Origin: a virus
Reading direction: 5' to 3' (one strand)
DNA: 64,000 nucleotides
Virus record (IMG/VR): IMGVR_UViG_3300032011_002687
Location: 3,419 to 67,418 of that record
The notes below the pieces were generated by a model. It did no database searches and was not told the origin of the DNA. It saw nothing but the letters and a program-made list of their open reading frames with translations. Each line of letters begins with the position of its first letter. The stretch's first letter is position 1. Shown here one piece after another: positions 7,676 to 50,225 of this stretch. The translations under genes were made by a program, and so were the position numbers.

Positions 7676-7696
7676 AATATAACCTTTAATAAATAG

Positions 7697-8323: not shown

Positions 8324-8325
8324 AG

Positions 8326-11908: not shown

Positions 11909-12048
11909 TTGTAAATAAATGGGTCCTTAGATTTTAATTTTTTCAGTTTCTTATCAATTTTTCTTTTGAGTTTCCAATCCCAATACTTGTTTTTAAGCCA
12001 GTGATAGATTTTAAACTCACCCCAAAATAAATTATCCCAAAAACTCAC
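11905..12048 (-). CDS. Small basic hypothetical protein (47 aa)
   Basis: Manual: GTG start overlapping upstream TGA; MSFWDNLFWGEFKIYHWLKNKYWDWKLKRKIDKKLKKLKSKDPFIYK; stop overlaps next ATG. Confidence 0.6.
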   Translation of the reverse strand: MSFWDNLFWGEFKIYHWLKNKYWDWKLKRKIDKKLKKLKSKDPFIYK

Positions 12049-14049: not shown

Positions 14050-14666
14050 AAATAATTATCCATTGTTATTGCAGTATATAACTGATTTTGGGTTTCTTGT
14101 TTGTGTATTGTTTTAGGATGATACAAACTCAATTCCTCTTGTGGTGGGATATGAGCATATGTTTTACAACCTGTAATTTGTTCGTGTACTGGTCGTTGCC
14201 ATCTAATTCTTTTATCATTTTTAAAAACTCTTGATTGGTAATCTGGATAATTAATCCAACCTTGTTCTGTTTGTTTCCAACCCCAAGTGTTTAAGTGTGC
14301 TTGAGTAATACCATCGACTGTATTTATTCTTGGTATCCAAATTAAATCAACTTGATTTATCTCAAGTATTTGTTTTAATTGTTGAACCAATATAACATTT
14401 GGATATTCATCCGCATCTATGTGAAAGATGTAATCACCACTACATTTTTCAATTACAAAATTTTTATGTTTTGCAAAATCACCACCAAGTTTTCTTTGAT
14501 GATGTTCTACATCATATTTCTTAATTATATTTTGAGTTTCTTCATTTGAAAAATCATCAACTATAACAACTTCATCTTCAGAATCTATATTCTCTGTTAA
14601 TATTTCTAATAACTGATTTAACTCTTCGTGTTCATTGTGGACAGTGATTCCATAACTAATTTTCAA
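14046..14666 (-). CDS. Glycosyltransferase family 2
   Basis: ISYGITVHNE, IVDDFS, FHIDADE, VHEQI; TTG start inferred after GAGG. Confidence 0.88.
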   Translation of the reverse strand: MKISYGITVHNEHEELNQLLEILTENIDSEDEVVIVDDFSNEETQNIIKKYDVEHHQRKLGGDFAKHKNFVIEKCSGDYIFHIDADEYPNVILVQQLKQILEINQVDLIWIPRINTVDGITQAHLNTWGWKQTEQGWINYPDYQSRVFKNDKRIRWQRPVHEQITGCKTYAHIPPQEELSLYHPKTIHKQETQNQLYTAITMDNYL

Positions 14667-15162
14667 TTCCAGCCTCAATTTGTTTTTGGAACTTTCGTTC
14701 CATTTCTTTACTAAATTCATCTAATGTATCTTTTGGTATTTTACTATAATCTACTTCAAGATACACTCTTCGTTTTAAACATTCTCTTCTATCAAATGTT
14801 CTGTAATTTTGATATTGACCAACCAATTGTTTTAATCTTTTATACATTACTGATGTTTGTGCTTTTGAAACTCTATCAGGTAAATCTGCTGCAATAGAAC
14901 CCTCTTCAAATTCTAATCCACCAAGTTTACCAAATAATTTTTCAATTTTAGTTTCAGTTAATGGTCTTGTTATTGCGGTATCTAATACTAATCCTGCAAC
15001 AAATCTTTTAATTCTTTTGGTAGTTTTTTTTCTAAATCGTAAATCTGGATTTAACATCAAGATGGTTCTCTTATATCCACGAGTCTCACCTTTTGATTTA
15101 TACATAAAGGTTACTATTTGACCTGGTTCAACTTGATGCCATGCTGTATTCTTTATCGCCAC
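14656..15162 (-). CDS. Hypothetical protein
   Basis: 168 aa ORF in operon, no recognised motif. Confidence 0.6.
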   Translation of the reverse strand: MAIKNTAWHQVEPGQIVTFMYKSKGETRGYKRTILMLNPDLRFRKKTTKRIKRFVAGLVLDTAITRPLTETKIEKLFGKLGGLEFEEGSIAADLPDRVSKAQTSVMYKRLKQLVGQYQNYRTFDRRECLKRRVYLEVDYSKIPKDTLDEFSKEMERKFQKQIEAGIEN

Positions 15163-15623
15163 TAATCAAGGTCCTTGATTATACCCATATCCTTACAAGC
15201 ATCTAAAAACTCATATTGCCCATAGGTTTTTGCAGTTTCTACATCTAATATACTATCGTGACCTTTGTATTTATCATCCTTTAATTCTAATGCAGTTAAT
15301 TTACGAACTTCTGCTAATTTATAGTTCCAACTATTTTGAGTACCATCTGGATAAATTACTCCCAACTTTCCCATATTTAAAACTGATGGAAACCACATAA
15401 GTTTTCTCTCTTCATCATAAAAAGAAATATCATTCATCAATTGTGATGAACCTAATTGTGCTTTTTTAAGTTCTGGTGAATCCCACTCGTATGTTGAATT
15501 ACTTGTGAATCCACAATTAAAACACATATACGATTTAAAATCTTTACCCTCAACTTCTTGAGTATCTTCAAAACATCTCTTGTCATTAAAACAATTTGGA
15601 CAGGTTATTATTTTTTCAGCCAT
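15162..15623 (-). CDS. Hypothetical protein with N-terminal Zn ribbon
   Basis: CPNC...CFNCG pair. Confidence 0.6.
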   Translation of the reverse strand: MAEKIITCPNCFNDKRCFEDTQEVEGKDFKSYMCFNCGFTSNSTYEWDSPELKKAQLGSSQLMNDISFYDEERKLMWFPSVLNMGKLGVIYPDGTQNSWNYKLAEVRKLTALELKDDKYKGHDSILDVETAKTYGQYEFLDACKDMGIIKDLD

Positions 15624-15624
15624 T

Positions 15625-16938
15625 TTACACCTTTTTCAGTTTGGGTAATTTCAACCCTTTATTATCTTCTACTTTATTTAACTTAGGTAGTTTCAATTCT
15701 ACTGCTTTTGGAACTGATTCTACTATTGGGTCAATGATAGATTCAAGTTTATTCTTCATTGATTCATACGAGAATTGCTTCTTTGTGTATGCTTGTAATT
15801 GTTTTCCCTTTACTTGGTACTTACTATAATTATTATGAATCTCACTAAAAACACTTGATGCTACATTATAATTGACTGTAATCCATTTATTTTCTGGACT
15901 ATTGAATGCCATATCCTTTGGAAATGCTTCCATAGGAACTTTAGTTAATGAACCAGGTAATAACTGAGCATAGTTTTTATGTAAGAAATCTACATGTCCA
16001 CTCCAACCTGGTGCAACTACTGGTTTACCACTCTGTGCTGCTTCTAATAATGGTCTACCAAATCCCTCTCCGTGAGTGAATGTGACATGAGCTTTTACCT
16101 TTGGATGATTATACATTTCATTCATCTCATTATCTGTAAAATCTCCGTGTATTAAATAGATATTTGGAAGTTTACTACCAACTATACCTTTTTTGATATA
16201 TTTAATTTTCTTTAAAATATCTTCCCTATCTAATATAGAAAAATCTGCACCACTTGTTTTAAGTAATAAAGCAGGTTGATTTCTTGTATTCTTGAATGTT
16301 TCTAAAAATACTTTAATCAACATACCTACATCTTTTCTATCTTGTCCAATTGAACCACCCAACCAATGACCAGTAAATAAATAACAAAAATCTTCTGTAA
16401 TAGGTTTGAATGCATCTTTAACCGTCTTACCAATCTTCTTGGTTTCCTTATAAACATTTGTATCAACACCCTCAAATAAAACCTCTGATGGTTTTTGCAT
16501 TTTTATTTGTCTCTGTTGTTTCTCATCATTAAATTCTGCTTGTTCGAAAACATTTTTAGAAAACTCTGAAGTGAATATTGTGGTATCCATTCTATTTACA
16601 CCATCTACCCAACTCGGTATTGGTATAGTGGATTCCATTCCAGCTGTCATACCAATATTTTTTTTACCTATTGGTTGAAACTCACTTGGAATAACTATAT
16701 GTAAATGTACATCAGGTTGTTTTTCTAAGTTTGGACCTGAAATTAAATGTGATTTAATTTTATCGTGTTGTGGATTACCATCTTCCAATGCAGTCATCGG
16801 TGTACTTCCCCATCTTACGGAATTAATTTTCACATTGTATTTATCTGATTCAATCAACGCAGAACAAATATCTCGTGAGTGATTTCCGTACCCACTACGA
16901 GTTTTTACTGGTGCTGTTACTAATATTAATGGTTTCAT
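15625..16938 (-). CDS. Glycosyltransferase family 4 (GT-B)
   Basis: SGYG, RKDV, HGEGFGRPLLEA (Ex7E). Confidence 0.9.
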   Translation of the reverse strand: MKPLILVTAPVKTRSGYGNHSRDICSALIESDKYNVKINSVRWGSTPMTALEDGNPQHDKIKSHLISGPNLEKQPDVHLHIVIPSEFQPIGKKNIGMTAGMESTIPIPSWVDGVNRMDTTIFTSEFSKNVFEQAEFNDEKQQRQIKMQKPSEVLFEGVDTNVYKETKKIGKTVKDAFKPITEDFCYLFTGHWLGGSIGQDRKDVGMLIKVFLETFKNTRNQPALLLKTSGADFSILDREDILKKIKYIKKGIVGSKLPNIYLIHGDFTDNEMNEMYNHPKVKAHVTFTHGEGFGRPLLEAAQSGKPVVAPGWSGHVDFLHKNYAQLLPGSLTKVPMEAFPKDMAFNSPENKWITVNYNVASSVFSEIHNNYSKYQVKGKQLQAYTKKQFSYESMKNKLESIIDPIVESVPKAVELKLPKLNKVEDNKGLKLPKLKKV

Positions 16939-16941
16939 ATC

Positions 16942-18378
16942 TTACGCCTTATATGTGTTAACTTTTTTTCTTGGTGTCCATTTTTCAAATGCAGTTTCCA
17001 TATGGTCTATGAAATTTTTACACATCCATCGTGCACTCATCATAGATTCATCTCCACTAACCCATTCGTGTCCTTTGAACCCACACTCATCTCTTGCTTC
17101 TTTACCCATCTCATACCATTCTTTAATCCTAACGGCAGCATCTTGCCAATCACATCTGTCATCAAAAATGTATGGTGTTGGAACTGAACCCATCAATGAA
17201 CGAGTCTTAGGCCAAACTGGTTTACACCACTCACCCCAAGTTAATTCTTCATTGTGTTCCCACTCTTTCCAATTATGTAGAGATTTGATTTCTTTATAAT
17301 CTTCTGCAGTTAAAAGTTTATCATTTACTTTAAATCCTGCTTGGTCTTGTAATCCACCTGTAACATTCACGATGATTGGTGTTCCACTCATTAATGATTC
17401 ACAAGTTCCTAATCCGAATCCCTCGTTGGATGCAAGGTTCATTGTAACATCTGCAATATTGTATAAGAAATTCATTTGTTTATTTTCAAGTTTCTTAGTA
17501 CTAAACACCACATTTATTTCTGGTGCAATAGCATTAATTAATGCTGGTAAATCAGTTCCATTTCCATCAACTGGTTGTGTATGCATTACATATGTAACTT
17601 TATCTCTATCTTCCTTTGGAATGGTACTTACAAATTCTTTAAATGCAAGAATACAATCACCCATCATCTTTCTACGAATATTTCTATTCACATACAATAA
17701 TGTAAATTTATGTGGTTTATTACCTAATAACTCATTCTTAAATTTTCTCATCTCTAACAATTCCGCTTCATCCTTAATTGGATAGAATTGTGTTTCATTA
17801 ATTCCGTGTGGTAAGTATGTAGAATCCCAATCTGTTCTTGGTTTTTTCTTTGCAACCTCATCAACTAACCCAACTGTCTGTTTAGAAATATTCATAATCA
17901 AATCACAACTCTCATAAAAGAACTCGTTGTAATGTGGTGCAGGTAAATCATCCCAAATATTGTAATAGAAAATAGGTATGTTCTGTCTTAACTCGTGTTC
18001 CATATGATACAACCATCCCCAAAATCTTGGGTCTGTGTAGTGTAGAATTGCATCTGGCTTTTCAAGTTCCATAATTTCTTTTAGAATATCTGGATTACCA
18101 TAACCATCAATTGGATAAACTTTTAAGTATCCATCTGTAACACCAGTTTCTTCTTTTACAGCATCGTGCATATCAACCACTTTACCCTTATCTGGATGTT
18201 CTATTGCTCCACCAATCTGAACCCAATCGTATTTATCAATCGTACCCAATACAAATTCTCTCGACATCGTACCAACCCCACTTGACATACGAAGGTCATC
18301 TGATAGTAAAAGAATCTTTTTCTTCTTACGAGCTTGTACTTCTTTTACTGACTTTAATTTTGGTAATTTAATATCCAT
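16942..18378 (-). CDS. Glycosyltransferase family 4 (GT-B)
   Basis: SGVG, NRNIRRK, SNEGFGLGTCES, TGGLQDQ. Confidence 0.9.
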   Translation of the reverse strand: MDIKLPKLKSVKEVQARKKKKILLLSDDLRMSSGVGTMSREFVLGTIDKYDWVQIGGAIEHPDKGKVVDMHDAVKEETGVTDGYLKVYPIDGYGNPDILKEIMELEKPDAILHYTDPRFWGWLYHMEHELRQNIPIFYYNIWDDLPAPHYNEFFYESCDLIMNISKQTVGLVDEVAKKKPRTDWDSTYLPHGINETQFYPIKDEAELLEMRKFKNELLGNKPHKFTLLYVNRNIRRKMMGDCILAFKEFVSTIPKEDRDKVTYVMHTQPVDGNGTDLPALINAIAPEINVVFSTKKLENKQMNFLYNIADVTMNLASNEGFGLGTCESLMSGTPIIVNVTGGLQDQAGFKVNDKLLTAEDYKEIKSLHNWKEWEHNEELTWGEWCKPVWPKTRSLMGSVPTPYIFDDRCDWQDAAVRIKEWYEMGKEARDECGFKGHEWVSGDESMMSARWMCKNFIDHMETAFEKWTPRKKVNTYKA

Positions 18379-32612: not shown

Positions 32613-35351
32613 TTAAAAATCAATAGTTAATCCTATGTTTGCATATCTTGGTGTTCCAAGAAATACTTCAGAATTATGAGCTAAGTGAAGTTTATCACCA
32701 TACCCATTGTATTTACTATTGTCAACGGCATCTTGTACGAAAACTTCATCAAGTGCGTTAAAGATGTGACCTGTAATAGTCAAATCTAAACCACCAATAC
32801 TTGGAAGTTTGTAAGATGCGTGTAAATCAAGTTTTGAGTAACCAGGAGCTTCCCAAACTTGTGTTCTATCTGCAACTCCATCAGAATCCACTTCTCTTGA
32901 ATCAGGACTCCAATCTGCATAGTTCTTATCATATACATTGTAAAGTGCTTGTAATCTCAATCCCTTAATAGGTTTAAGTGTTACACCCAATATATAAGAT
33001 GATTGTGGTTGGTCACCAACAAATAAACCATCAAGTGCATATGCATATTCAGTAGTTTGATAACCAATTACTTGGTTGTCATCGTTATATTGAGATTCTT
33101 GGTAAGTACCATTGGCATCACCATCGAATTTCCAACCACCGAATGAAGCAATTAAATCAAGTTCTACCATATCGTGTGGTAATACTTTTACTTCAAGTTC
33201 TGTACCTTGATGTTTCTGATTAACACCTCTTAAAAAGATTACATCAGTATCACCTGAATCACCTTGACCCGTGTCAACATTACGAGTAAGGTTTCTATCT
33301 TTCCAATCTGTGTTATATACGGAAACATTAACTGCAACTTTATCATTTGCATATCCCAGTCCAACTTCTGTTGATAAGAATTTCTCATTATCTGGGTCGG
33401 ATGAGACCGTACCAGAATAATCAATTACATTATCAAGAATTGGTGCTTTTTCTACATATCCTGAGTTGATGAATGAAGTAACACCTGGAATAATTTCATA
33501 GTGTACTCCACCTTTAACTTGAAATGATGAAATAGCATCGGCAGTAATTTTCTCGTTTTCTACTGAAAAATGGTCTTGATATGAGTATTGAATAGATGAT
33601 ACCCCACCCATTCCATATACATTTAGATTATCTTTCGTGTAGTTACCTTGAACAAATCCACCTAACCAATCGACAGTAGTAGTGTTGTGATAAGCAATAA
33701 TATCACCTAAACCAACAACTTTCCCATCTGGTGCATTTTTATCTGCAAAATCAACATAGTAATCACCACCTAATAAATCACGAACTTCACGAGCGTGTTC
33801 TATTTCAGCAGTTCTCCAGTCAATACCTGTCTGAAACTCTAAATTATCATTTACTTTGTAATTTAATTTAGAGATTAATCCGTATGTGTCCTGTCTGTTG
33901 ATTGAGTTTCTAAGAATACCTGTGGAACGCTTGTCTGTTTCAGAGTAATCAGCATCGATATTAGTACGATTCTGTTCAATCTCTCCATTCCAATCCCACA
34001 TCCAAGGCGAACTTGAATACCAAGCATTATCTGCTACAGCAGGTGTTCTCATTACACTACCATAAGTACCAGTTCCACCACCTGAACCACCACTCCAATA
34101 AAGAACTGATGATAATTTAGTTTTATCATTTATCTCTAAAAAGTGATTTAGATTCACTAATGGTTTATGGAAGAAATTCTCCCTTTCATTAAGAAAGTTT
34201 GAATTGTATCTTTTGGTTGTGTTTGCTCCATACATATACCAATATTGTTCTCCAGTGTAGTCGGAACTAACTGGTGCCCAATTTTGACTAAAGAATCTAC
34301 CAGCTTCAGTTTCGAATTTGTTACCCTCTGCAAAAGCATCAGTATCATATCCGTCAATATCACCAGCTAACTCTTGTGAGTAAGTAGCAATATTCTGTTT
34401 GTATAGATTTTGTCCGTGTCTTTGTGGAGCACCGATTGCATACAACTCAAATCGTTGTTTATCGGATACTGCGTAAGAACTTCCAAAATAATAAGCCCAA
34501 GCATCTGTCCAGTTTCCATCAATGATACCATCACCAGTCTTACGAACAATTGTTCCAGCCAGTGCAAGTTTATCACCAATTAAACCTGTATTATAGTTAA
34601 TAGTAGTTTTAAGAAAACCACCATCTCCTGTTTCTTGTTTGAACTTACCACCCTTTTCATATTTAGCAGGGTCTGTAATGATATTCATAGTTCCACCAAT
34701 AGAAGGTGTTGCTAAATTAACAGCAGATAGTCCTCTTTGTAACTGAATAGATTGAGCAGCATCTGCAACTCCATCCCAATTACTCCAATAAACCCATCCG
34801 TTCTCCATATCATTTTGGGGAACACCATTAATCATTACCGCAACATTTCGTTGGTTAAATCCACGAACATTGATTCTTGCATCACCAGCACCACCACCTT
34901 GTTGAGTTGCATATACACTTGGTGTAGTATTCAAAGCCATTGGAACATCTTGAGAACCTAATCTCAATTCCATTTCTTCTTTACTAACCATTGAATAAGC
35001 AACAGGTGTTGTTGCAACAGCTCTTGAAGCCAAAACTTCAACATCTGTTAGAGTAAGAGCATCAACTGCCAAAGCAATATCTACTTTTACTTCACTATCA
35101 CTCACAACAACCTCTTTAGATTGAGATGAGTATCCTATGAATGAAGCAGTAATAGTATAAGTTCCAGCTTCTACTGAAATTGTAGTAAGACCTGTCTCGT
35201 TAGTAACACCACCGAGTTCAGTTCCCTCTACCACTACATTTGCTCCAACCAAAGGGTTATATTCTGCATCTTTAACATCAACAACGATGGATTGAGCGAA
35301 CAATCCTGTCATCAATACGAAAGATGCTATTAGTTTACGATATATATTCAT
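32613..35351 (-). CDS. TonB-dependent outer-membrane receptor
   Basis: Signal peptide, carboxypeptidase-regulatory-like domain (GANVVVEGT...SFIGY), plug (RINVRGF...VMINGVP...GGTMNIIT), beta-barrel, C-terminal F. Confidence 0.95.
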   Translation of the reverse strand: MNIYRKLIASFVLMTGLFAQSIVVDVKDAEYNPLVGANVVVEGTELGGVTNETGLTTISVEAGTYTITASFIGYSSQSKEVVVSDSEVKVDIALAVDALTLTDVEVLASRAVATTPVAYSMVSKEEMELRLGSQDVPMALNTTPSVYATQQGGGAGDARINVRGFNQRNVAVMINGVPQNDMENGWVYWSNWDGVADAAQSIQLQRGLSAVNLATPSIGGTMNIITDPAKYEKGGKFKQETGDGGFLKTTINYNTGLIGDKLALAGTIVRKTGDGIIDGNWTDAWAYYFGSSYAVSDKQRFELYAIGAPQRHGQNLYKQNIATYSQELAGDIDGYDTDAFAEGNKFETEAGRFFSQNWAPVSSDYTGEQYWYMYGANTTKRYNSNFLNERENFFHKPLVNLNHFLEINDKTKLSSVLYWSGGSGGGTGTYGSVMRTPAVADNAWYSSSPWMWDWNGEIEQNRTNIDADYSETDKRSTGILRNSINRQDTYGLISKLNYKVNDNLEFQTGIDWRTAEIEHAREVRDLLGGDYYVDFADKNAPDGKVVGLGDIIAYHNTTTVDWLGGFVQGNYTKDNLNVYGMGGVSSIQYSYQDHFSVENEKITADAISSFQVKGGVHYEIIPGVTSFINSGYVEKAPILDNVIDYSGTVSSDPDNEKFLSTEVGLGYANDKVAVNVSVYNTDWKDRNLTRNVDTGQGDSGDTDVIFLRGVNQKHQGTELEVKVLPHDMVELDLIASFGGWKFDGDANGTYQESQYNDDNQVIGYQTTEYAYALDGLFVGDQPQSSYILGVTLKPIKGLRLQALYNVYDKNYADWSPDSREVDSDGVADRTQVWEAPGYSKLDLHASYKLPSIGGLDLTITGHIFNALDEVFVQDAVDNSKYNGYGDKLHLAHNSEVFLGTPRYANIGLTIDF

Positions 35352-35435: not shown

Positions 35436-37457
35436 TTAGTTTGCGTAATCTTGGTCATCATTATCACCAGTTGTCGGTGTGATTTCTACATCACAAAAAT
35501 CACCATCACAAAATTTTTCTATATTTGCTTCTTCCGCCTTGATTACACCAAAGTTTAATTTACCAAGTTTCTTAACATCTTTATTATATTGTTTTTCATC
35601 AATTGCTTCATACGGCATTTGTTTGTATGCTCCATAATCGTGTCTTGGTAGTAAACTAATTCCCTTTAAATGATATTGAAAATAGTTTAATACTTGTGGT
35701 ATCATTTCACCCTCTGTATCAGGATTAAATGTGACAGTACAACTTACTTGATTATCAGCCCAATGTCTTTGCATAAATGCTGCTAAACTGAATTGTTCCC
35801 AAATGGATAATTCTCCGACTGTTCTAATTCCCTCTCCTACATCGACAGGAACTTCAACAACCATAGTGGTATCCTCTGAACCAAATGCAGGTTCTACTTT
35901 ATATCCTGCCTTTTTCAATGGTTCTAACAAATCTGAATGTTTCGATACTCTAATTCTTCTTGTATAGAATCTTGATTCAGGATAATGTAATCCAGGTGTT
36001 GAACCTGCTAATAGTGATACTGTCCCACTTGGTTTAACACTTGTAGTTTTAATTGATTTTGGTACTGCAAACCAATCTGAATACATATTATCCCATTCTT
36101 GTATAGTATCGTATCCCTCTTCTAACCAATTCTTTAATTCGTGTAAACCACGATTAGTAATGAACTGAGCAATTCCACTCACACTACATCCAATTCTACG
36201 ATTTCTCAACATCACACGATTAGTATCACTCCAATGAGTTCTACCTAATGTTACTGTCTTTGCATACAAATAAGCATATTTTAATGTTCTCTGATAATCC
36301 TCTAATGAATCGTGGTTACTTGGAAATGTTTCCACTAAACAACATAACTCATATGATTCTAATGATTGTTCCAAACAAGGATTACCACCCATTACTCTAT
36401 GGTCTTTATCATCTCCACCATTTTTCATACGAGAATAATGTCTCATATTTTCTAACCACGCAAATCCAGGTTCACCATTATCATTAATTCTTTTTGATGC
36501 CTCTGTATAATCCATACCAAGTTCAGCAAATATTGAATTATTAGATGTCCAACCATATTGTTCTCTATGTGGATTTACTTTATAGTTCTTTAAATCTAAA
36601 TACTCTTCATTGTGTGGGTCACCAAATACAATCTCTGCAGTTCTTCTCACATTACCCGCAACAACACACTTACCGATTAGATTCATAATATCTACGATGG
36701 TTGTTATTGTTATTGGTTTTCCACTATTTTTTTCTAATGTTTCTCTAACAGTCTCGTGTACTTCCATTAGTGGTTCAGGACCTGAACTTACTCCTCCAAA
36801 ACCTTTGATTGGAACACCTGCTAATCTGATTAAACTATAATCAAATACAACTTCCCCTTGTCCGTGAAAGTAACTTTCTAATAAAAGTTGTAGTGATTCT
36901 ACCCAACCCTCACGAGTATCTGGTATTTGGAAATTCTGCTCATCTCTTTTGATATCAATACCTTTAATATCTATCTCACCAGCACCCTTTGTATCGAAAC
37001 CAACACCAACTCCTAACATACTTGCATCCATCAAGAAACAAAATGGTTTGGAATAATCTTCTTTGATTGTTTTTGTTGATACGAATGCACAATTATTTAG
37101 TGCTGCATATAAACCTTTTTCTTCTGTGATTGCCGTTCCCATAGCCCATAAACCACGACCTGGTGGAAGAAACTTCATTGTAAAGATTCTTTCATACATA
37201 TCTTGTGCGGATTTTTGTGCTTGCCAAGGATTCCAACCTAATTGATGAGATTCAATCCAATTCATTTGCATTGTATAAGTTCCCTCTACAACTCTTTGGA
37301 CAGTTTCCCACCATCTTTCATTTTTTCCATCTTCTTTAATTCTTGAATAAGTTCTCATATAAACTAATTCACCTAACCCATTAAAACCGAAAGGCGGTTT
37401 CTTTCTTTTGTACTTATCTATAAAGTTATCTGATAACTTGAACTTATGTTTTCCCAT
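35436..37457 (-). CDS. nrdJ: Class II (adenosylcobalamin-dependent) ribonucleotide reductase, monomeric RTPR type
   Basis: RTYSR, FLPPGRGLW, LNNC, GNVRRTA, NPCLEQ, TSVKPSGTVS, C-terminal CDGDFC. Confidence 0.95.
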   Translation of the reverse strand: MGKHKFKLSDNFIDKYKRKKPPFGFNGLGELVYMRTYSRIKEDGKNERWWETVQRVVEGTYTMQMNWIESHQLGWNPWQAQKSAQDMYERIFTMKFLPPGRGLWAMGTAITEEKGLYAALNNCAFVSTKTIKEDYSKPFCFLMDASMLGVGVGFDTKGAGEIDIKGIDIKRDEQNFQIPDTREGWVESLQLLLESYFHGQGEVVFDYSLIRLAGVPIKGFGGVSSGPEPLMEVHETVRETLEKNSGKPITITTIVDIMNLIGKCVVAGNVRRTAEIVFGDPHNEEYLDLKNYKVNPHREQYGWTSNNSIFAELGMDYTEASKRINDNGEPGFAWLENMRHYSRMKNGGDDKDHRVMGGNPCLEQSLESYELCCLVETFPSNHDSLEDYQRTLKYAYLYAKTVTLGRTHWSDTNRVMLRNRRIGCSVSGIAQFITNRGLHELKNWLEEGYDTIQEWDNMYSDWFAVPKSIKTTSVKPSGTVSLLAGSTPGLHYPESRFYTRRIRVSKHSDLLEPLKKAGYKVEPAFGSEDTTMVVEVPVDVGEGIRTVGELSIWEQFSLAAFMQRHWADNQVSCTVTFNPDTEGEMIPQVLNYFQYHLKGISLLPRHDYGAYKQMPYEAIDEKQYNKDVKKLGKLNFGVIKAEEANIEKFCDGDFCDVEITPTTGDNDDQDYAN

Positions 37458-37573
37458 TTTGAAACTCTCCATTTTTAAATTTAATTATACCTATTATATG
37501 TATGATATATACTTGATTATATTAGCAATATATACATTTTTTTCGAAGTTTAAAAAAGATTTTCTTTGAAGTT

Positions 37574-42155: not shown

Positions 42156-42208
42156 TTCATATTCTCCATTTGTTTATGTTCATTTTTCATTTGTTAATCA
42201 AGTGTAAC

Positions 42209-42229
42209 CTTGATACAATAATATATATC
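42209..42229 (-). promoter_or_regulatory. Phage-specific promoter motif upstream of ssb
   Basis: Minus strand GATATATATTATTGTATCAAG; 19/20 identical to 42790-42809. Confidence 0.55.
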
Positions 42230-42269
42230 AATTAAGATAGTTAAAATGTAATTTATTTTAGTTTTTTGC

Positions 42270-42348: not shown

Positions 42349-42760
42349 GAATTTGGGGGATGTAGGATTTGCGATTACCTACAACTTTTAGCTCAGATTT
42401 TATTACTTCATACCTAACATCTACCAGTTACGATAGTTATTCTTAAATGATGGTTAATCATCGTAGAATCGAGTACAACCTCTATGTCATTGCTTTATCT
42501 CTCTGAGTATAGATTAATTCAGCCATTAAGTGGGATTTCAGTTTTACCCTTACCCACAATGAAGTCCAAGAATCGCTCTTGTTTTTTCTAAAAGTACATT
42601 CCAAATTATATGTCTATAAGGACCGTTACACCTCTACAACATTTAGCAGAGTTCCTGTCACCACAACATTTGGTAGATTACCTTATGGGCTTCTAAGTAG
42701 CACCCATTATTCGGTCAATCCCATATTGAGATAATTACTCTCAATACTTTCACAAAATTC
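42349..42760 (-). ncRNA. Candidate large structured non-coding RNA (~410 nt), family unassigned
   Basis: No ORF of 60 aa or more in the ORF track; many local and long-range helices, complementary ends GAAUUU/AAAUUC, own promoter motif (42790-42809) and terminator (42270-42341). Confidence 0.65.
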
Positions 42761-42789
42761 TAAATTGTCAAAAAACTTTGTATCTCAAT

Positions 42790-42809
42790 CTTGATACATT
42801 AATATATAT
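42790..42809 (-). promoter_or_regulatory. Phage-specific promoter motif driving candidate ncRNA
   Basis: Minus strand ATATATATTAATGTATCAAG, near-identical copy of the ssb upstream motif. Confidence 0.55.
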
Positions 42810-42922
42810 GTATATAAATTCCCAAAATACATTTTTTTTTCAAAAAAAGTAAAAAAAGTTGATATTTATTGTTAATTAACCGATTATGAGTTAATTTCAA
42901 CGCGTTATCTCAGGAGTTTAGT

Positions 42923-43117
42923 ATGAAAACAATACTAACTGGTATACTTTCTTTATTTATTTTCTTTGGAGCAGTTCCGCAAGTGAATGCTATGGATATG
43001 AAAATGGATAATATGGAAGAAGTCAAGAAGAAGAAAAAGAAGAAAAAGAAACTTGGTGGAAGTAAAGGTAAGAAATCTAAAAAAGGGTTCTTTTCTAAAA
43101 TCTTTGGAAGTAAGTAA
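42923..43117 (+). CDS. Small exported lysine-rich cationic protein
   Basis: CAGGAG RBS, signal peptide ending VNA, K9 tract, amphipathic GFFSKIFG tail; GATATTTATT motif at 42861. Confidence 0.75.
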   Translation: MKTILTGILSLFIFFGAVPQVNAMDMKMDNMEEVKKKKKKKKKLGGSKGKKSKKGFFSKIFGSK

Positions 43118-43129
43118 TCTTCAATAAAT

Positions 43130-43161
43130 AAAAAAGGGGAATGTTTAGTTCCCCTTTTTTT
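43130..43161. terminator. Bidirectional intrinsic terminator
   Basis: AAAAAAGGGGAA-loop-TTCCCCTTTTTTT between convergent genes. Confidence 0.88.
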
Positions 43162-43168
43162 GTGCCCC

Positions 43169-43537
43169 CTACTGAAAAATTATTGGAAGTTTGAATCTTA
43201 CTTTTACTGGTCTACCATTTTGTGTTGCAGGTTTGTACTTGGTTTGTTTTACTTTATCAATTACTACTTCATTTAACTCAACATTAAATGTGTCTATTAC
43301 GATTGGATTTTCTACTTCACCATTCTCATTTATTTCAAATTCAACTTCCACTTTTCCAACTGGTTTTATTATACTTGGTGGGAGGTCAAACTCATATAAT
43401 TCAAATGGCCTAATAGGTTGTGGGATTTCAGAATTATTATTCTGCCTATTCCAATCCTCTTGGACTTCAAGGTCTATCTCGGTTAATTGAGCATATAAAG
43501 GTAATTGTAATAAGAGTAAACAAAAGAGTCGCTTCAT
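43169..43537 (-). CDS. TonB C-terminal domain protein (energy transducer TonB-like)
   Basis: Signal peptide; GKVEVEFEINENGEV...KYKPATQNGRPVKVRFKLPIIF. Confidence 0.85.
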   Translation of the reverse strand: MKRLFCLLLLQLPLYAQLTEIDLEVQEDWNRQNNNSEIPQPIRPFELYEFDLPPSIIKPVGKVEVEFEINENGEVENPIVIDTFNVELNEVVIDKVKQTKYKPATQNGRPVKVRFKLPIIFQ

Positions 43538-43624
43538 TTGTTATCTCCGTGTTTAGGATTAAAGGATTATGTTAACACTCGATTCTCTTCGAATCAACTA
43601 TAAATATAATACTACAATTTTATA

Positions 43625-44050
43625 TTATGAGTTTTGTATTTTATTTCTTAAATAATTAAGATATGAATTAACTTTCTTTAATTCTTGTGGGTCTTTTATA
43701 GTTTCTAATTTATTATGTAACTTTCCGTATGCTTTTTGTAAATCTATTAATGCAATCCCTCTCATAGATTTTCTGTAATATAAATGATGTAATGCTTCAT
43801 CTTCTGCTTCTGCACCTCGAACACCAGCAACAGCAGTGACTTGTTCCACTTCGTAATAAACATCAACAACATCTTCTATTTCTTCCCATATGTGTGTTTC
43901 CCATAAGTTTTCCAAATCTAAATCTACATCTAAGGAATCTTCCTCACCTCTTGCTACTTGTAATGTGAAGAATATTATTATAAAGTATTTTAAAATTTTA
44001 ATCAATATCGATTTCAATTGTTTTCCCTCTTCTATCATAATCAGTACCAA
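43625..44050 (-). CDS. Hypothetical exported/membrane protein
   Basis: Hydrophobic N-terminal segment, acidic region, AVAGVRGAEA motif; start uncertain. Confidence 0.55.
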   Translation of the reverse strand: MVLIMIEEGKQLKSILIKILKYFIIIFFTLQVARGEEDSLDVDLDLENLWETHIWEEIEDVVDVYYEVEQVTAVAGVRGAEAEDEALHHLYYRKSMRGIALIDLQKAYGKLHNKLETIKDPQELKKVNSYLNYLRNKIQNS

Positions 44051-44423
44051 CGATTATTGCATATTCACCAGCACCAATTCTATCTGTCCATTCTGTACGA
44101 TATAACTTCCATACATATGTTTCTATTCGTTCTCTACCATCACCATATGGACTTAATGATATTGGTTGTTTATGCACTACTTCTCCGTACTTATCAACCA
44201 TATACAATTTAGTTTTCATTCTATCAACTAAGTATCGTACTTTTACAACATCACCACCCTTATCAGTATCACGCCAAGCTTGGACTGGATACTCATAAAA
44301 ACTTTCCATTTCTGGTTCTACAAAACTTTCATCTTCTATATCTGGTGAAAAGAGAATAAACCCCACCACAACTATAATAGCTGTGATGAGGCCCAATTCT
44401 ATCTTGTTTTCTAAGTTACTCAT
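43998..44423 (-). CDS. Membrane-anchored hypothetical protein (Ig/FlgD-like beta domain possible)
   Basis: TM segment LGLITAIIVVVGFILF; YVWKL...GAGEYAIIV; start moved to MSNLENK. Confidence 0.55.
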   Translation of the reverse strand: MSNLENKIELGLITAIIVVVGFILFSPDIEDESFVEPEMESFYEYPVQAWRDTDKGGDVVKVRYLVDRMKTKLYMVDKYGEVVHKQPISLSPYGDGRERIETYVWKLYRTEWTDRIGAGEYAIIVGTDYDRRGKTIEIDID

Positions 44424-44856
44424 TGGTGTATAGAGTAGGTAGTTCATCCAATTCAAATGTTGTTGAATCGTATTTGTAGTAATAGATTTCATCATTTCTT
44501 CTGTGATGAAATATTGCTGGTTCACCAACTGCATCTATACTAAACTGCCACTCGTTATCTTCATCAGGTATTCCCTCAAACAATGTAACTGATAAGTTAC
44601 GACTTCTACCAATAGTAGTTAACGGATTATAAGGCCATGCTTCAAGACCAAACTCAGTCAATCTTTCAGAAGCCTCTTGTTCACAACCTGCCCACACCAT
44701 ATCGACAAATGCCTTTTCAGCGGTTGCTTCTGCATTATCAACTGTCTGTTGATATCTTGGAATAGCAACTGCTGCTAAGATTCCCAATATGATTGTTACC
44801 ATTACTAATTCAATCAATGTGAATCCTTTACTTGTGTTTTTGATTATGTTCTTCAT
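44416..44856 (-). CDS. Type IV pilin (prepilin-type N-terminal methylation motif)
   Basis: KG/FTLIELVMVTIILGILAAVAIP. Confidence 0.92.
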   Translation of the reverse strand: MKNIIKNTSKGFTLIELVMVTIILGILAAVAIPRYQQTVDNAEATAEKAFVDMVWAGCEQEASERLTEFGLEAWPYNPLTTIGRSRNLSVTLFEGIPDEDNEWQFSIDAVGEPAIFHHRRNDEIYYYKYDSTTFELDELPTLYTNE

Positions 44857-44890
44857 TTTTATTTTCCTTTCAGGACTATGTGTTTACGAT

Positions 44891-45538
44891 TTAAGGTACT
44901 AAAGTTTTGTGTAGTTTAGATGGATTTTCAGTATCTATTACCACTACAACTGGTGCTTGTGCAGATGTACCACTTCCACTACCAGGTATTACTAAATAAG
45001 CGTATGAACCATCCTGAAATGGACTTGTCATACCATTGTTACCAAAGTCTTGTTTGAAATCAAGAGCACCAATTTCATCACCAGCATCATATCCAACTGA
45101 TGTCTCTAAACTCATCCAATCCCCTTGAAGTGCATCATCATCATCACTTGTTGGTGAGAATACATATACGAACTCACCCAACTCTGATGTATAAGAATTT
45201 TTCGAATCAAGGATAGTTTCAACATAAGCCTCAAGAGTTTCATCAGTTTGTGCACCTTCAGCAAGAGTGATACCACCAACAGCGACATCATACTTTTCTT
45301 GACCTGGGAATCTACCTTTACCCTCTTCAGATAATGTTTGATTATAAAAATTGTTAGCCACAGTCAAGATTTTATCAATATTATTCATTGTTTTCTTTTC
45401 TTTAGCTCCTGCACCAACTTGTCCAAATTTTGGAGCAGCGGTTGTAGCAAGTGTTGCCATCATAGCTGTGGTTACTGCGAATTCAGCAAGTGAGTTTCCT
45501 CTCCTACTCTTCAATCTTTTAATAAGGTTTTTGAACAT
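44891..45538 (-). CDS. Type IV pilin-like protein with atypical cleavage motif
   Basis: RRG/NSLAEFAVTTAMMATLATTAAPKF (Gly -1, Glu +5), GRFPG; AGGAG RBS. Confidence 0.8.
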   Translation of the reverse strand: MFKNLIKRLKSRRGNSLAEFAVTTAMMATLATTAAPKFGQVGAGAKEKKTMNNIDKILTVANNFYNQTLSEEGKGRFPGQEKYDVAVGGITLAEGAQTDETLEAYVETILDSKNSYTSELGEFVYVFSPTSDDDDALQGDWMSLETSVGYDAGDEIGALDFKQDFGNNGMTSPFQDGSYAYLVIPGSGSGTSAQAPVVVVIDTENPSKLHKTLVP

Positions 45539-45602
45539 CTTCGTTCTCCTTTTGTTTAGTTTGAGATTTCATCCTTATGATTACATCTTCTATAGCTTAT
45601 AG

Positions 45603-45619
45603 TACAAGAAGTGTACCAA
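45603..45619 (-). promoter_or_regulatory. Sigma54-like -24/-12 promoter upstream of the pilin genes
   Basis: Minus strand TTGGTACACTTCTTGTA = GG-N10-GT, close to TGGCAC-N5-TTGCA. Confidence 0.55.
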
Positions 45620-45686
45620 AGTGGCCCTTTTTTGAAAAATAATTTAATTTATTTTTAAGTGTAGATATTGTGGAAGTTATAGGCAC

Positions 45687-45712
45687 AAAAAAACCACTCG
45701 ATTAAAGTGGTT
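45687..45712 (-). terminator. Intrinsic terminator
   Basis: Minus strand AACCACTT-loop-GAGTGGTT continuing into a T run. Confidence 0.75.
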
Positions 45713-45754
45713 ATAAGTATTAAAAATTGTAGTGTATTATTTTGATACTAACAA

Positions 45755-45775
45755 AATGTTACAGCCTGTAACATT
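45755..45775. promoter_or_regulatory. Perfect palindrome, candidate enhancer-binding-protein site
   Basis: AATGTTACA-GCC-TGTAACATT (TGT-N11-ACA), ~140 bp upstream of the -24 element. Confidence 0.5.
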
Positions 45776-46181
45776 ATGTGTCCCATTCCTTTACATTTAC
45801 GATTTGATGTATTTTTGTAGGTATTATATTTAAACCAGTTTCGTTGGTTAGTAGTAAAGTGTTCTGATACTCACTCCAATCAACATTAAATCTCTTATCT
45901 AAGATTCCTTTATTCTTTGCTCTTATAACTTCATTCAAAGCGTTAATAGTATATAGTGTATTACTTTGTTTCTTTCTATGTAGTGAAATAGTATTCTCTA
46001 TATTCTCTTCATAGTTATCAATAAACTCTACATTATAAGTACAAATCAATTGTGTGGTATCATCCATATTCTGAAATATATAAATCTTATCATAGAGTAT
46101 ATCATTACACTCCATAATAACACTAAGTGTTTCATTTAATCTCGATAAACGAGTGAATGTGCATAGTAATTGAGTTCTCAT
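45774..46181 (-). CDS. Hypothetical phage protein
   Basis: 135 aa; QLLCTF, HRKKQSNTLYTINALN. Confidence 0.65.
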   Translation of the reverse strand: MRTQLLCTFTRLSRLNETLSVIMECNDILYDKIYIFQNMDDTTQLICTYNVEFIDNYEENIENTISLHRKKQSNTLYTINALNEVIRAKNKGILDKRFNVDWSEYQNTLLLTNETGLNIIPTKIHQIVNVKEWDT

Positions 46182-48049: not shown

Positions 48050-49341
48050 AATTTCTCTGTTATGTCCTGCATCTTGTGATAGTTATCTCCCATCGCAACT
48101 TTAGTTGGATACTTACCACCTTGTTCTAATATCTTCTTTACCTCTTTCAAATACTCCAAACCATCTCCCTTTACATCGAAATCTAACAAAAAAGCATCAT
48201 AATTGTAAAGAACTATTTTACTATTATATTTTTCATCTAATGGTAGTAATTCATCCAATATACGAATGTTATTTTCGGTTTCCGATAATTGTATCATATA
48301 ATTGAACAATTTGTTCGGATTCATATCGTGCAGGTTTTCCTTATATATTTCTCTATTATAAATATCAGATTTAATACTTTTTGATGATTTCCAAGTACTC
48401 CACAGTCCCTTTATAAACTCATCTACCCTACCAAAAAACGGGTTTTGTTTCATTTCGGTAGTTATACCACCATATAAATACTTGAATGTTAATTGTTTTC
48501 CATCATCATAACCCAATCCATATGTTTCTGCTAAGTGTTTGTGTGCAGAACCTTTAGGGAATTTATAATCAATCATCTCTCCAATTAATCGTGGATGATA
48601 TGCATCAAAATCAAACTCCACCAATACACCTTTATCAAATCTACTGATGAATTGTTTTCTACTACCATCTTTTTTATTTAGTGCTGCGAAGTTCATACCA
48701 CCAAAACGATTACTTGGTCTACCTGTTGATGTATAGGGATTATATTCTGTATAAACCATACCCTTTGTGGTTTTTAATCCATTCTTCTCTATTTTTGATA
48801 AAACACTTAAAATATCTTGTTGATAATGTGGTAATGCTGGAATACTACCATCAGTTTCTAACTTATCCAATAAATCAATTGCTATTTTATGTAAATACTC
48901 TCCGTGTTTAACCAATGGAACTATATCATTTACATTTTCTTTATCGTAATGTAATCTGTAATTGTGGTGGTGTGCATTGGTTAAGTGTTTATCAAAATCA
49001 TATGGTTGATTTGTTTTCATATAATGACACCAATTTAAATCTATTGTTCCGAATGTTGTAGAAGTATAATCTCGTATAACCATTGAGTTATGATAGTGTT
49101 GTTTAATGTCTGCAACACATATAGTTTCTTCGGTTTCTACACTTTCAATACGACCAAATCTTTCATTATGATTTACTGGTATGATGTAACTCTGTGTCAT
49201 CATTCCAACATAAAAACAAGATATACGATTCTGTTTAGAATGTTTGTTCACATCCGATAACATTTGTAGATATACGAATGGTTGTGTTCTCATTTTTCGT
49301 TGTAACACATCCCACTCTTTTTTAGTGTTTACTATAACCAT
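48046..49341 (-). CDS. Family A DNA polymerase-like protein (compact, divergent)
   Basis: TSTGRPSN, LVEFDFDAYHPRL (motif A), KQLTFKYLYG (motif B), LYNYDAFLLD (motif C). Confidence 0.8.
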   Translation of the reverse strand: MVIVNTKKEWDVLQRKMRTQPFVYLQMLSDVNKHSKQNRISCFYVGMMTQSYIIPVNHNERFGRIESVETEETICVADIKQHYHNSMVIRDYTSTTFGTIDLNWCHYMKTNQPYDFDKHLTNAHHHNYRLHYDKENVNDIVPLVKHGEYLHKIAIDLLDKLETDGSIPALPHYQQDILSVLSKIEKNGLKTTKGMVYTEYNPYTSTGRPSNRFGGMNFAALNKKDGSRKQFISRFDKGVLVEFDFDAYHPRLIGEMIDYKFPKGSAHKHLAETYGLGYDDGKQLTFKYLYGGITTEMKQNPFFGRVDEFIKGLWSTWKSSKSIKSDIYNREIYKENLHDMNPNKLFNYMIQLSETENNIRILDELLPLDEKYNSKIVLYNYDAFLLDFDVKGDGLEYLKEVKKILEQGGKYPTKVAMGDNYHKMQDITEKL

Positions 49342-50225
49342 TAATTTAATTTATTCTTTACATAAGTAACTATCTGTTCGGCAACTCTTATTTCAGTATA
49401 TTTTTCCATACCTTGAAAACCAGGTGAAGAGTTAACCTCACATATTTTGTATCCATCCTCATCATATAATAAATCTACACCACCTATATCTAATCCTAAT
49501 AGTTTTGTAGATTCTAATGCAAGATATTCCATTTGTTCATCGAGTTCTACTGGTTTTGCACCACCACCTCGTGTAACATTTGCTCTAAAATCTCCATCTA
49601 CTGATTCTCGTTTCATTGCTCCAATCACTTTACCACCCACTACAATAATTCTCAAATCTCTACCGAATGAATCCTTTACAAATTCTTGTAATATGATATT
49701 AAACCTATCATTGAATTGTTCCATCATCTCTACTAATTGTTCGAAGTTTGATTTATTATCTGCAAGATAAACACCCTTTCCGTGAGTACCACTTAGTGAT
49801 TTAACCACAATAGGAAATCCAATGTTTCTCTGTACATAATTTGAATCTATTGGATTCTTAACCAACATAGTTTTTGGATGTGGAATATTATTCTGTGATA
49901 GTATTTGCATTGTATAAAGTTTGTCTTTTACATTATCGATTGCATCACTACCATTGACAAACAATACACCCATTCTTTCTAAATGTCTGAATACTGCTTT
50001 TTGGTAATATGTAGTTGCACTTCCAACTCTTGGTATAACAAAATCAGGTATTGATGTATGTTCATTCTCTACTAATACCGATTTTCTATTATCTTTACTA
50101 ATGAATATATCAACATTATTTGGATGTACAAAAAAACACTCTATACCCTCTTTATCAAAACATTCAATTAATCTTTTTGTTTCGTAAGATGGTGTAGTTT
50201 GCGTTGTAAATATCCAACCTTTCAC
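49341..50225 (-). CDS. rimK: RimK-family ATP-grasp alpha-L-glutamate ligase
   Basis: DFVIPR, DKLYT, VVKSLSGTHGKGV, LQEFV, DLRIIVVG, FRAN, GVDLL, CEVNSSPG. Confidence 0.9.
   Translation of the reverse strand: MKGWIFTTQTTPSYETKRLIECFDKEGIECFFVHPNNVDIFISKDNRKSVLVENEHTSIPDFVIPRVGSATTYYQKAVFRHLERMGVLFVNGSDAIDNVKDKLYTMQILSQNNIPHPKTMLVKNPIDSNYVQRNIGFPIVVKSLSGTHGKGVYLADNKSNFEQLVEMMEQFNDRFNIILQEFVKDSFGRDLRIIVVGGKVIGAMKRESVDGDFRANVTRGGGAKPVELDEQMEYLALESTKLLGLDIGGVDLLYDEDGYKICEVNSSPGFQGMEKYTEIRVAEQIVTYVKNKLN

Follow-up and report, generated by a model that had tools for sequence, protein, structure and literature searches.

A recurrent pilin operon with a domain-only TonB protein in putative T4-like marine phages of probable Marinimicrobia hosts

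Single pilin genes are already known from phages. In Pseudomonas, pili take up the prophage protein P-FimU, which shuts out phages that bind the pilus tip (Sztanko et al. 2026, Cell Rep, PMC12952977). That report places P-FimU/P-PilA pilus subunits in Pseudomonas F10-like and Xylella prophages and PilA-like genes in virulent phages as well. Here we describe a five-gene operon at 43169-45538 on the minus strand of a 64-kb stretch of viral DNA, which comprises positions 3,419 to 67,418 of the IMG/VR record IMGVR_UViG_3300032011_002687 (a single contig of 67,418 bases) and is called the window throughout. What is new is a multi-gene pilin cassette with a domain-only TonB. Like P-FimU, the cassette is a case of phage-encoded homologues of a host pilus subunit, and it shares with P-FimU and P-PilA the diverged phage copy of a host subunit, the intact leader, the use of the host machine and a proposed role in blocking phages. 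Whereas P-FimU and P-PilA are single genes there, we found a fixed operon in which two to four pilins are joined by an apparently phage-only membrane protein and an exported one, and often by a TonB domain. The cassette differs further in its putative sigma54-type promoter and in its setting, T4-like marine phages of an uncultured phylum, and it is known from sequence alone. Incorporation into the pilus and a block to adsorption, as for P-FimU, are plausible by this precedent.

Other described systems resemble single parts of the locus. Aqs1-type inhibitors (PMC13436744) also represent a phage-encoded change of pilus function; they act, however, in the cytoplasm or inner membrane as small inhibitors of PilB or of other parts of the machine and not as pilus subunits. 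PocAB-TonB3 of P. aeruginosa connects the making of type IVa pili with a TonB paralogue (Huang 2004 and Cowles 2013, cited in PMC5285504), which gives a reason for a TonB domain in a pilin operon, although the link to our cassette is one that we infer and TonB3 is described there as a full, membrane-anchored cell protein, unlike the phage protein. TonB of E. coli, for which solved C-domains are available (2gsk_B, 1u07_A), has the same C-terminal domain (PF03544), but the phage protein has only 122 residues, lacks the membrane anchor and the Pro-rich spacer, and is predicted to be a periplasmic, domain-only protein. The marine megaphage Mar_Mega_1 carries a SusC-type receptor (Michniewski et al. 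2021, PMC9723777) and thus shares a CarboxypepD_reg+Plug receptor gene with the window (32613-35351); it belongs to another phage group, and the accessible text on it mentions neither a TonB domain nor pilins. The first Marinimicrobia-linked viruses came from single-cell genomes, again with no mention of pilins or TonB in the portion of the source available (PMC4611503). A full-text literature search with partial coverage returned no description of a multi-gene pilin cassette or a domain-only viral TonB in marine phages.

The five genes are tightly packed between two intrinsic terminators, in the order pil215, pilin146, tm141, exp141 and the gene for the TonB_C protein, and constitute one operon. 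Its parts are the following.

44891..45538, minus strand: pil215, a type IV prepilin of 215 residues from an apparently Marinimicrobia-specific family, major-pilin-like, with the leader MFKNLIKRLKSRRG/NSLAEFAVTTAMMATLA and a family profile that matches solved pilins
44416..44856, minus strand: pilin146, a canonical type IV prepilin of 146 residues, MKNIIKNTSKG/FTLIELVMVTIILGILAAVAI (G/FTLIELVMV at the leader junction)
43998..44423, minus strand: tm141, a bitopic protein with an N-terminal membrane helix bearing an invariant Glu, then an Ig-like beta-sandwich
43625..44038, minus strand: exp141, an exported protein with a signal-peptide-like N-terminus and the conserved core ...TAVAGVRGAEAEDEAL.HLYYR.SM.G
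43169..43537, minus strand: a secreted TonB_C-only protein of 122 residues, with the signal-peptide-like MKRLFCLLLLQLPLYAQ, a linker of ~40 residues and TonB_C
45604..45618, minus strand: a sigma54-type -24/-12 promoter element, TGGTAC-N5-TTGT, ~66 nt upstream of the pil215 ATG
45692..45712, minus strand: an intrinsic terminator that closes the upstream gene orf135 and forms the upstream boundary of the cassette (8-bp stem, 3 GC pairs, T-run)
43130..43160: a strong hairpin terminator that can be read on both strands and forms the downstream boundary (its minus-strand stem has 12 bp, and either strand offers a 5-bp version), common to the operon and a small convergent open reading frame (ORF)

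A preliminary description of this stretch, made from its letters, had recognised a pair of prepilins, one membrane and one exported protein, and a secreted TonB C-domain with no spacer. This anatomy was confirmed, with all ORFs at the coordinates proposed, as was the setting among phage genes, which flank the operon on either side. What that description had missed is the sigma54-type promoter, the origin of the pilin pair in a host pilus locus, and the fact that the cassette is common and conserved. The gene arrangement is beyond chance, because the order recurs in 79 viral loci and all five genes show a ratio of nonsynonymous to synonymous substitution rates (dN/dS) between 0.11 and 0.32. The starts of tm141 and exp141 were read from the sequence and its homologues, both later than the longest frames, and signal peptides were read by eye and not by a predictor.

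Both prepilins carry a class III signal peptide. In pil215 (...KSRRG/NSLAEFAVTTAMMATLATTAAP) the leader ends in Gly, and Glu at +5 and a hydrophobic helix follow; G14 and E19 are invariant across 26 family members, and 74 of 77 phage copies and 78 of 82 genome copies retain the leader G-x-S-L-A-E-F. Searched against curated pilin models, pil215 had no Pfam match at E<=1 and no PHROG match at E<=0.01. Its family profile, however, matched solved major type IV pilins, namely geopilin PilA-N (E 4.8e-6), PilA and MshA (8.7e-4). A search of 1.84 billion proteins gave the family 283 representatives at E<=1e-3. Pilin146 is the more conventional of the pair: its basic leader, Gly, Glu at +5 and hydrophobic helix of ~20 residues match the Pfam family N_methyl (PF07963; E 3.3e-7, 30 bits against a cut-off of 21.2) as well as phrog_27437 and phrog_3433, both annotated as pilin, and its profile matched solved PilA (8.2e-7) and MshA (3.9e-5). 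Of 101 phage copies of pilin146, 97 have the leader motif.

We scanned one genome for each GTDB species and found the pil215 family in 46 genome loci, 20 of them Marinimicrobia/Neomarinimicrobiota, 20 labelled merely "bacterium" and 6 bearing other names, which may reflect mis-binning. The preliminary description had guessed at Marinimicrobia, and 20 of the 26 taxon-named loci bear this out, together with the exp141 and receptor counts given below; the probable hosts, judged by gene content, are thus Marinimicrobia (SAR406; NCBI Fidelibacterota). In these genomes pil215 forms tandem arrays of up to five copies at the head of pilin clusters, and a pilin146-type gene follows it in 24 of the 46 loci. 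The host locus that we looked at in detail, on a Neomarinimicrobiota single-cell contig (L083), encodes an A24 prepilin peptidase, a T2SSE ATPase with MshEN (1.5e-128 and 1.5e-15), a sigma54 activator and T2SSF, followed by the pil215 homologue, the pilin146 homologue, four prepilin-like genes, a 550-residue protein, AAA_22 (8e-17) and a weak PilO-like protein; a T2SSB match was also weak. The MshEN-bearing extension ATPase and the MshM-like AAA_22 protein are those of an MSH-type system, and from this one locus we read it as an MSH-like type IVa pilus locus. The phage shares with it the pil215-pilin146 pair in the same order, the leader motifs and the sigma54-type promoter motif, whereas the peptidase, ATPase, activator, T2SSF, four extra prepilin-like genes, AAA_22 and PilO-like protein are on the host side only. 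Searched against the 67-kb phage contig, the L083 peptidase, ATPase, activator and platform proteins gave no match. The host pilus locus, for its part, is without tm141, exp141 and TonB_C.

We built a quick maximum-likelihood tree of pil215 from 26 phage and 58 genome rows left after thinning at ~85% similarity, with support from the Shimodaira-Hasegawa-like approximate likelihood ratio test (SH-aLRT) only and a midpoint root. The window pilin fell into a clade that comprises 21 phage rows and L082, a contig of 2.7 kb that hardly differs from a viral one (SH-aLRT 99), and this clade is nested inside the host clade formed by array-last copies. Another four phage rows lie in tight clusters with host genes, among them L219, sister to L083 (support 95), which suggests that phages captured pil215 more than once. 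With the midpoint root, the direction of transfer would be from host to phage. The window pilin is 36-49% identical to host copies, and its clade sits on a long branch (0.6).

The promoter element recurs with the pilin. Sigma54 promoters have the consensus TGGCAC-N5-TTGC, with GG at -24 and GC at -12, and need an activator, a bacterial enhancer-binding protein (bEBP). Counting the pattern TGGYAY-N5-TTGY, we found it in the 150 nt ahead of pil215 in 64 of 75 viral loci, or 51 of 61 once identical upstream sequences are collapsed, against a background of 34 matches in 1.41 Mb, the remainder of those loci. In the genome loci it precedes 35 of 40 first pil215 copies, or 70 of 80 when all copies are counted. 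Because the motif is conserved in viral and genome loci alike and the host locus contains an activator gene, we read the element as a conserved sigma54-type promoter that was apparently carried over along with the pilin. Contigs from RNA libraries of two studies fall on all five cassette genes and none falls on 45475-46142, a stretch covered by DNA runs; such contigs cannot give transcript starts, strand or level, and the pattern is a contig-level hint of cassette expression. As a separate observation on the host side, each pil215 paralogue there usually has its own sigma54-type motif, and two loci carry long tandem pilin146-type arrays after pil215 (L097 10001-20307 and L108 10001-17344, with ~17 and ~10 tblastn matches); these long arrays look like a pilin variation system.

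To the point raised in the preliminary description, whether related phages carry these genes, the answer is yes. Scanning IMG/VR with the pil215 family returned 161 matching stretches, of which 79 loci were kept, on contigs of up to 132 kb. Pilin146-type genes accompany pil215 in 68 of them (often two or three genes), exp141 in 58, tm141 in 50, TonB_C in 22 and the small ORF in 17; since some of these loci end at contig edges, a missing TonB_C there may have been cut off. The order is fixed: pil215, pilins, tm141 and exp141 (in either order), TonB_C, and the convergent small ORF. Variants with three or four pilins are common, the window having the two-pilin form. Three other IMG/VR contigs (L006, L022 and L081) carry these genes, in unchanged order, at the corresponding site between orf135 and gp32. 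Measured against them, dN/dS was 0.11-0.32 for the five cassette genes and 0.09-0.15 for gp32, so that each cassette gene is under purifying selection. The features that border the cassette in the window are as follows.

45774-46181: orf135, a conserved upstream gene
42923..43117, plus strand: the small convergent ORF of 64 residues, from the ORF list, with a signal-peptide-like N-terminus and a Lys-rich tail (KKKKKKKKKLGGSKGKKSKKGFF...)

Homologues of the small ORF, which is usually convergent just past TonB_C, are those of the 17 cassette loci counted above; L081 also has one. The interval between orf135 and gp32 is an insertion hot spot. Among 61 related loci with both genes, the gap is at most 132 bp in 38, ~700-816 bp in 11 and 1.0-1.4 kb in 9, and exceeds 2.6 kb in only 3, two with the cassette and one with other cargo. 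The cassette adjoins gp32 in just 11 of its 79 loci. We dropped the statement that the closest relatives lack the cassette: it is true at the gp32 island (L001-L003), but the L018 contig, without a cassette at the island, has one elsewhere (L152). Other contents of the island were seen in L060 (5784-9224), where a 4.2-kb block of about ten small genes, including one for a 278-residue protein, fills it, and in L045 (4007-5281), where it holds a gene for a 424-residue protein.

Downstream of the pilins, tm141 and exp141 had no match in Pfam or PHROG, and exp141 had no usable Atlas match either. The likeliest start of tm141 is the ATG at 44423, within ATGAGTAA overlapping the pilin146 stop, and not 44534. 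Its helix begins with a Glu (E9) that is invariant and not preceded by Gly in 27 of 27 aligned sequences. The Glu of a pilin is present, the Gly -1 cleavage site is absent, and the globular part is an Ig-like sandwich and not a pilin head. The AlphaFold2 model has a mean predicted local distance difference test score (pLDDT) of 90.9, with a helix at 3-24 and seven strands, and Foldseek returned only generic Ig/FnIII-like matches for it (best E 3e-3). The Atlas clusters of tm141 are 100% viral, and in the host phylum it occurred in 1 of 301 genomes, on small contigs resembling phage fragments. From these distributions tm141 appears to be a phage-only, phage-invented membrane protein with a pilin-like helix.

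For exp141, with its likeliest start at the ATG at 44038, we found 45 distinct phage homologues in a short form of ~120-135 residues and a long form of ~200-220. The long form has an extra Cys-rich N-domain (…CDDTEYRD..G.P.WK.YG.WLSECDS…) that is absent from the short form in the window, and it is frequent in phages (for example L170 3865-4467 and L174 5404-6006). Homologues 47-63% identical were present in 24 of 301 sampled genomes of the host phylum. The host homologue lies after a 472-residue TPR protein and beside a MORN-repeat protein, outside the pilus locus; exp141 would accordingly be host-derived, from elsewhere than that locus.

The last gene of the operon encodes a protein that matches TonB_C (PF03544) over residues 61-121 with E 1.3e-11 and 45.2 bits against a cut-off of 24.6. 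Its family profile matched 10 solved TonB C-domains (E 2.4e-4 to 8.6e-3) and nothing else in the PDB. The N-terminus is a signal-peptide-like stretch of 17 residues, and the protein has neither a Pro-rich run nor an N-terminal membrane anchor. Short relatives, searched at lengths of 67-214 residues, form 37 clusters that are all 77-143 residues long. Because it has no anchor for ExbB/ExbD and no Pro-rich spacer, we file it as a TonB_C-only protein and not as a TonB energy transducer; being anchor-less, only 122 residues long and signal-peptide-like at its start, it should be unable to couple to ExbB/ExbD. Matches to TonB_C in the host phylum (63 of 151 genomes, 29-45% identity over the domain) are mostly frames of 216-250 residues, which fit ordinary TonB. 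In the first five host genomes examined, the closest was a secreted TonB_C-only protein of 130 residues, at 40%. Short TonB_C genes occurred in 51 viral loci; cassette genes adjoin them in 28, nearly always with exp141 or tm141 directly upstream. Judged by this linkage, TonB_C would belong to the cassette unit in part.

The preliminary description had proposed that the module remodels or jams the host pilus and TonB systems for superinfection exclusion, which the P-FimU precedent makes plausible. It had further offered the TonB domain as a partner of the receptor encoded by the phage itself:

32613-35351, minus strand: a TonB-dependent receptor of 912 residues, CarboxypepD_reg+Plug, adjoining a class II ribonucleotide reductase at 35436-37472

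Our data do not support this. Among 15 related loci whose flanks were long enough, 11 have the receptor, and TonB_C was nearby in just 1 of these 11, so that we rejected TonB_C as its obligate partner. A predicted complex of TonB domain 40-122 with receptor TonB box/plug 95-240 scored 0.00 in two runs, which were control-free and count neither way. In six related phage loci the receptor shows 70-96% identity, and the region of its TonB box (…DVEVLASRA…) does not vary; its best 120 homologues are all at least 75% identical, a list that carried no host information. Matches to the gene, with 64-79% identity at the nucleotide level, occur in 249 of 401 genomes of the Marinimicrobia phylum and often lie on long chromosomal contigs. 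A tie between the receptor and cobalamin supply for the B12-type reductase is only a thought.

Our preferred reading, to which we give a probability of about one half, is that the phage supplies major subunits to the pilus machine of its host and so gives the cell a phage-specified pilus surface. Because the phage contig brings no assembly machinery (no peptidase, ATPase, platform or secretin), host proteins must process the phage prepilins; these would be cut and polymerised by the host machine, and infected cells would display pili built from, or coated with, phage-made subunits. The cassette would be switched on through the host's own sigma54/activator circuit. The likeliest pay-off is that the altered pilus surface would stop the adsorption of rival or sibling phages. 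The soluble TonB domain would most likely bind, in the periplasm, the TonB boxes of outer-membrane receptors or a related strand of the pilus secretin.

Several observations weigh against this reading. The AlphaFold2 model of pil215, a 57-residue N-terminal helix (16-72) followed by a small alpha/beta head, reached a pLDDT of only 66.7, and Foldseek gave it no PDB match, pilin or other, at E<=1e-3, a result that is neutral on the presence of a pilin head. Within the window the sigma54 pattern was found twice where 1.14 were expected, a count that alone is not significant; the element keeps GG at -24 but has TTGT (GT) at -12 in place of the canonical TTGC, and dependence on a host sigma54 activator is unusual for a T4-like lytic phage. 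The cassette is not at the gp32 island in 58 of 61 related loci, and its position says little, because it can sit elsewhere in a related genome (L152 as against L018). TonB_C occurs without cassette genes in 23 of its 51 loci, and in 17 of the 37 having at least 2.5 kb of upstream sequence, and it stands alone at the gp32 island in L021. The host assignment rests on gene similarity to metagenome-assembled and single-amplified genomes; the host searches for tm141, exp141, the receptor gene and TonB_C were confined to genomes of the Marinimicrobia phylum, and one receptor homologue, 77% identical, is labelled Flavobacteriales. Finally, exclusion requires pilus-dependent phages, and to our knowledge none is known for these hosts.

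The alternative that survives best is that the cassette serves the host function itself, keeping up or raising pilus output, so that particle attachment and the capture of DNA or nutrients would go on and favour phage replication, with the TonB domain and the receptor as an uptake theme. Full-length, major-type pilins with intact leaders under purifying selection are what such a booster would contain, and the host's own type of sigma54 promoter has been kept. The host-like receptor, found in most related loci with enough flank and matched in well over half of the host-phylum genomes, and the nucleotide-metabolism genes held by the window also speak for it, as does the SusC-type receptor of the marine megaphage, which has been interpreted as an uptake gene (PMC9723777). 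A domain-only TonB without anchor or spacer, however, cannot transduce energy and so would not boost uptake in any known way. The strong divergence of the pilin from host copies fits a change of surface better than one of dosage, and tm141 has no host counterpart outside the single genome noted above. We therefore consider this alternative rather unlikely.

More doubtful, and in our judgment distinctly improbable, is that the products jam the host. Here tm141 would be an uncleavable pilin mimic that stalls the platform, and the TonB domain a decoy against receptors or a TonB3/Poc-like step, closing both entry routes. The invariant Glu at the start of the tm141 helix without Gly -1, the phage specificity of tm141, and the secretion of a TonB domain with neither anchor nor spacer all suit such a role. 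Periplasmic TonB fragments reportedly inhibit TonB-dependent transport in E. coli. P. aeruginosa needs TonB3 and PocAB for its type IVa pili, and a TonB3-PilQ N0 contact has been proposed (PMC5285504); small phage proteins that disable type IV pili, such as Aqs1, are also described (PMC13436744). Mere blocking, on the other hand, has no need for two or more intact, conserved, host-like major pilins under their own promoter, and each of the known blockers is one small protein. A decoy of general effect would, in addition, put the phage's own receptor with its invariant TonB box out of action.

The pilin set and the TonB domain might instead be separate morons that share a variable island and a terminator, with the TonB domain acting alone. 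The solitary TonB_C genes counted above, including the one at the L021 island, fit this, as do the 57 of 79 cassette loci that show no TonB_C (some of them cut by contig ends), the 87-nt gap and separate ribosome-binding site ahead of the TonB_C gene, and the other cargo that the island holds in L060 and L045. Adjacency is nevertheless the more frequent state: in the 28 loci with both, TonB_C lies on the same strand beside cassette genes, nearly always after exp141 or tm141, and this holds across TonB_C lineages merely 40-72% identical to that of the window. In addition, our terminator search detected none between exp141 and TonB_C. We hold this loose association to be very unlikely.

The contiguity of the contig, a concern of the preliminary description, was also examined. 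At least 0.8 of sampled words from the 5-kb stretch from gp32 to orf135 were present in 14 DNA runs, 11 after dropping three possible source runs. In the independent virome X12, 30 of 30 bins were covered, and contigs span both the orf135/pil215 join (45383-45658 and 45631-45981) and the terminator/TonB_C/exp141 join (43132-43791); a second independent DNA run also spans the orf135/pil215 join. In run X6, 43304-43637 (TonB_C) is uncovered, which would fit a variant without TonB_C, and one contig joins 42034 to 45808, skipping 3773 bases with 21 letters on the shorter side; neither is reliable evidence. Although the cassette genes have host homologues and some small homologous contigs lie in host genome bins (L082), a misjoin of host DNA into the phage contig, or a host fragment mis-called viral, has a negligible chance and was rejected, given the bridging and word coverage in non-source runs, the same insertion between orf135 and gp32 in three further viral contigs, the recurrence in 79 viral loci and a pilin far from near-identical to host copies.

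A bolder form of the reading of a phage-specified pilus surface would have a self-contained "phage pilus kit", by which abundant ocean phages turn the MSH-like pilus of the host into a hybrid, phage-specified filament. In it tm141 would be a new pilus component or platform plug and the secreted TonB C-domain the first natural viral binder of TonB boxes or of the secretin N0, and both entry routes of an uncultured phylum of global abundance would be closed or retuned under host sigma54; we regard this combination as doubtful.

The genome around the cassette has nearly all of its genes in the window on one strand and a GC content of ~32%. In profile searches, gp32, UvsX/RecA, a 5'-3' exonuclease and a DnaB-like helicase lie just downstream of the cassette, together with the class II (B12-type) ribonucleotide reductase, the CarboxypepD_reg+Plug TonB-dependent receptor and PolB; upstream are thymidylate synthase, a tail-lysin-like protein, baseplate hub, tail tube and sheath. 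Clamp loader and sliding clamp genes are also present. A collection of 50,697 phage records contained no cultured relative. The best match of PolB in it was Microcystis phage Mel-JY01, at 43%, and for the 4.5-kb region blastn returned nothing beyond a 140-nt stretch matching at 71%, in four records of Flavobacterium phages. With PolB identity to phage records so low, the phage is therefore best described, as far as its genes indicate, as an uncultured marine T4-like myophage. Relatives of its gp32 in IMG/VR number more than 598.

Further elements of the window lie outside the cassette. A manA RNA motif (Rfam RF01745) and a second, weak copy just upstream of it lie at 42357-42558 and 42614-42746 on the minus strand. 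The first is ~200 nt upstream of gp32 and has 64.3 bits against a gathering score of 55.2; the second came from a local search (25.9 bits, E 7e-4). Of nine related loci checked, five have the motif at the equivalent position (L022, L010, L081, L024 and L006) and four have none (L002, L021, L036 and L045). Similar AT-rich stretches (…TATATATATTA.TGTATCAAG.TT…) occur on the minus strand at ~42781-42815, upstream of the manA region, and at 42201-42230, upstream of gp32; this pair, spotted by eye, may be a candidate phage promoter motif. A run of sugar and cell-surface genes at ~3362-18378 on the minus strand includes, by PHROG matches, an aminotransferase (3362-4528), a phosphoheptose-isomerase-like domain (12045-13064) and two glycosyltransferases (15625-16938 and 16942-18378), and looks like a second envelope-modifying cargo block. 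The 294-residue protein at 49341-50225 on the minus strand matches phrog_2599, "ribosomal protein S6 glutaminyl transferase" (RimK-like), with E 1.2e-40.

Phage pilus subunits as a defence of one phage against another have recently been shown, for single genes and in cultured Pseudomonas only. Here they form a conserved operon that is common in abundant ocean phages, with a putative host-type sigma54 promoter retained inside a T4-like genome and with two parts that have no described counterpart, the phage-only pilin-like Ig protein and the domain-only secreted TonB. A natural periplasmic decoy, should the TonB domain prove to be one, would represent a new class of viral envelope effector. Through the shared genes a phage group of very large size can be linked to its probable hosts, and the cassette provides a testable handle on how phages may reshape the surface of SAR406/Marinimicrobia, a major deep-ocean group without a cultured phage.

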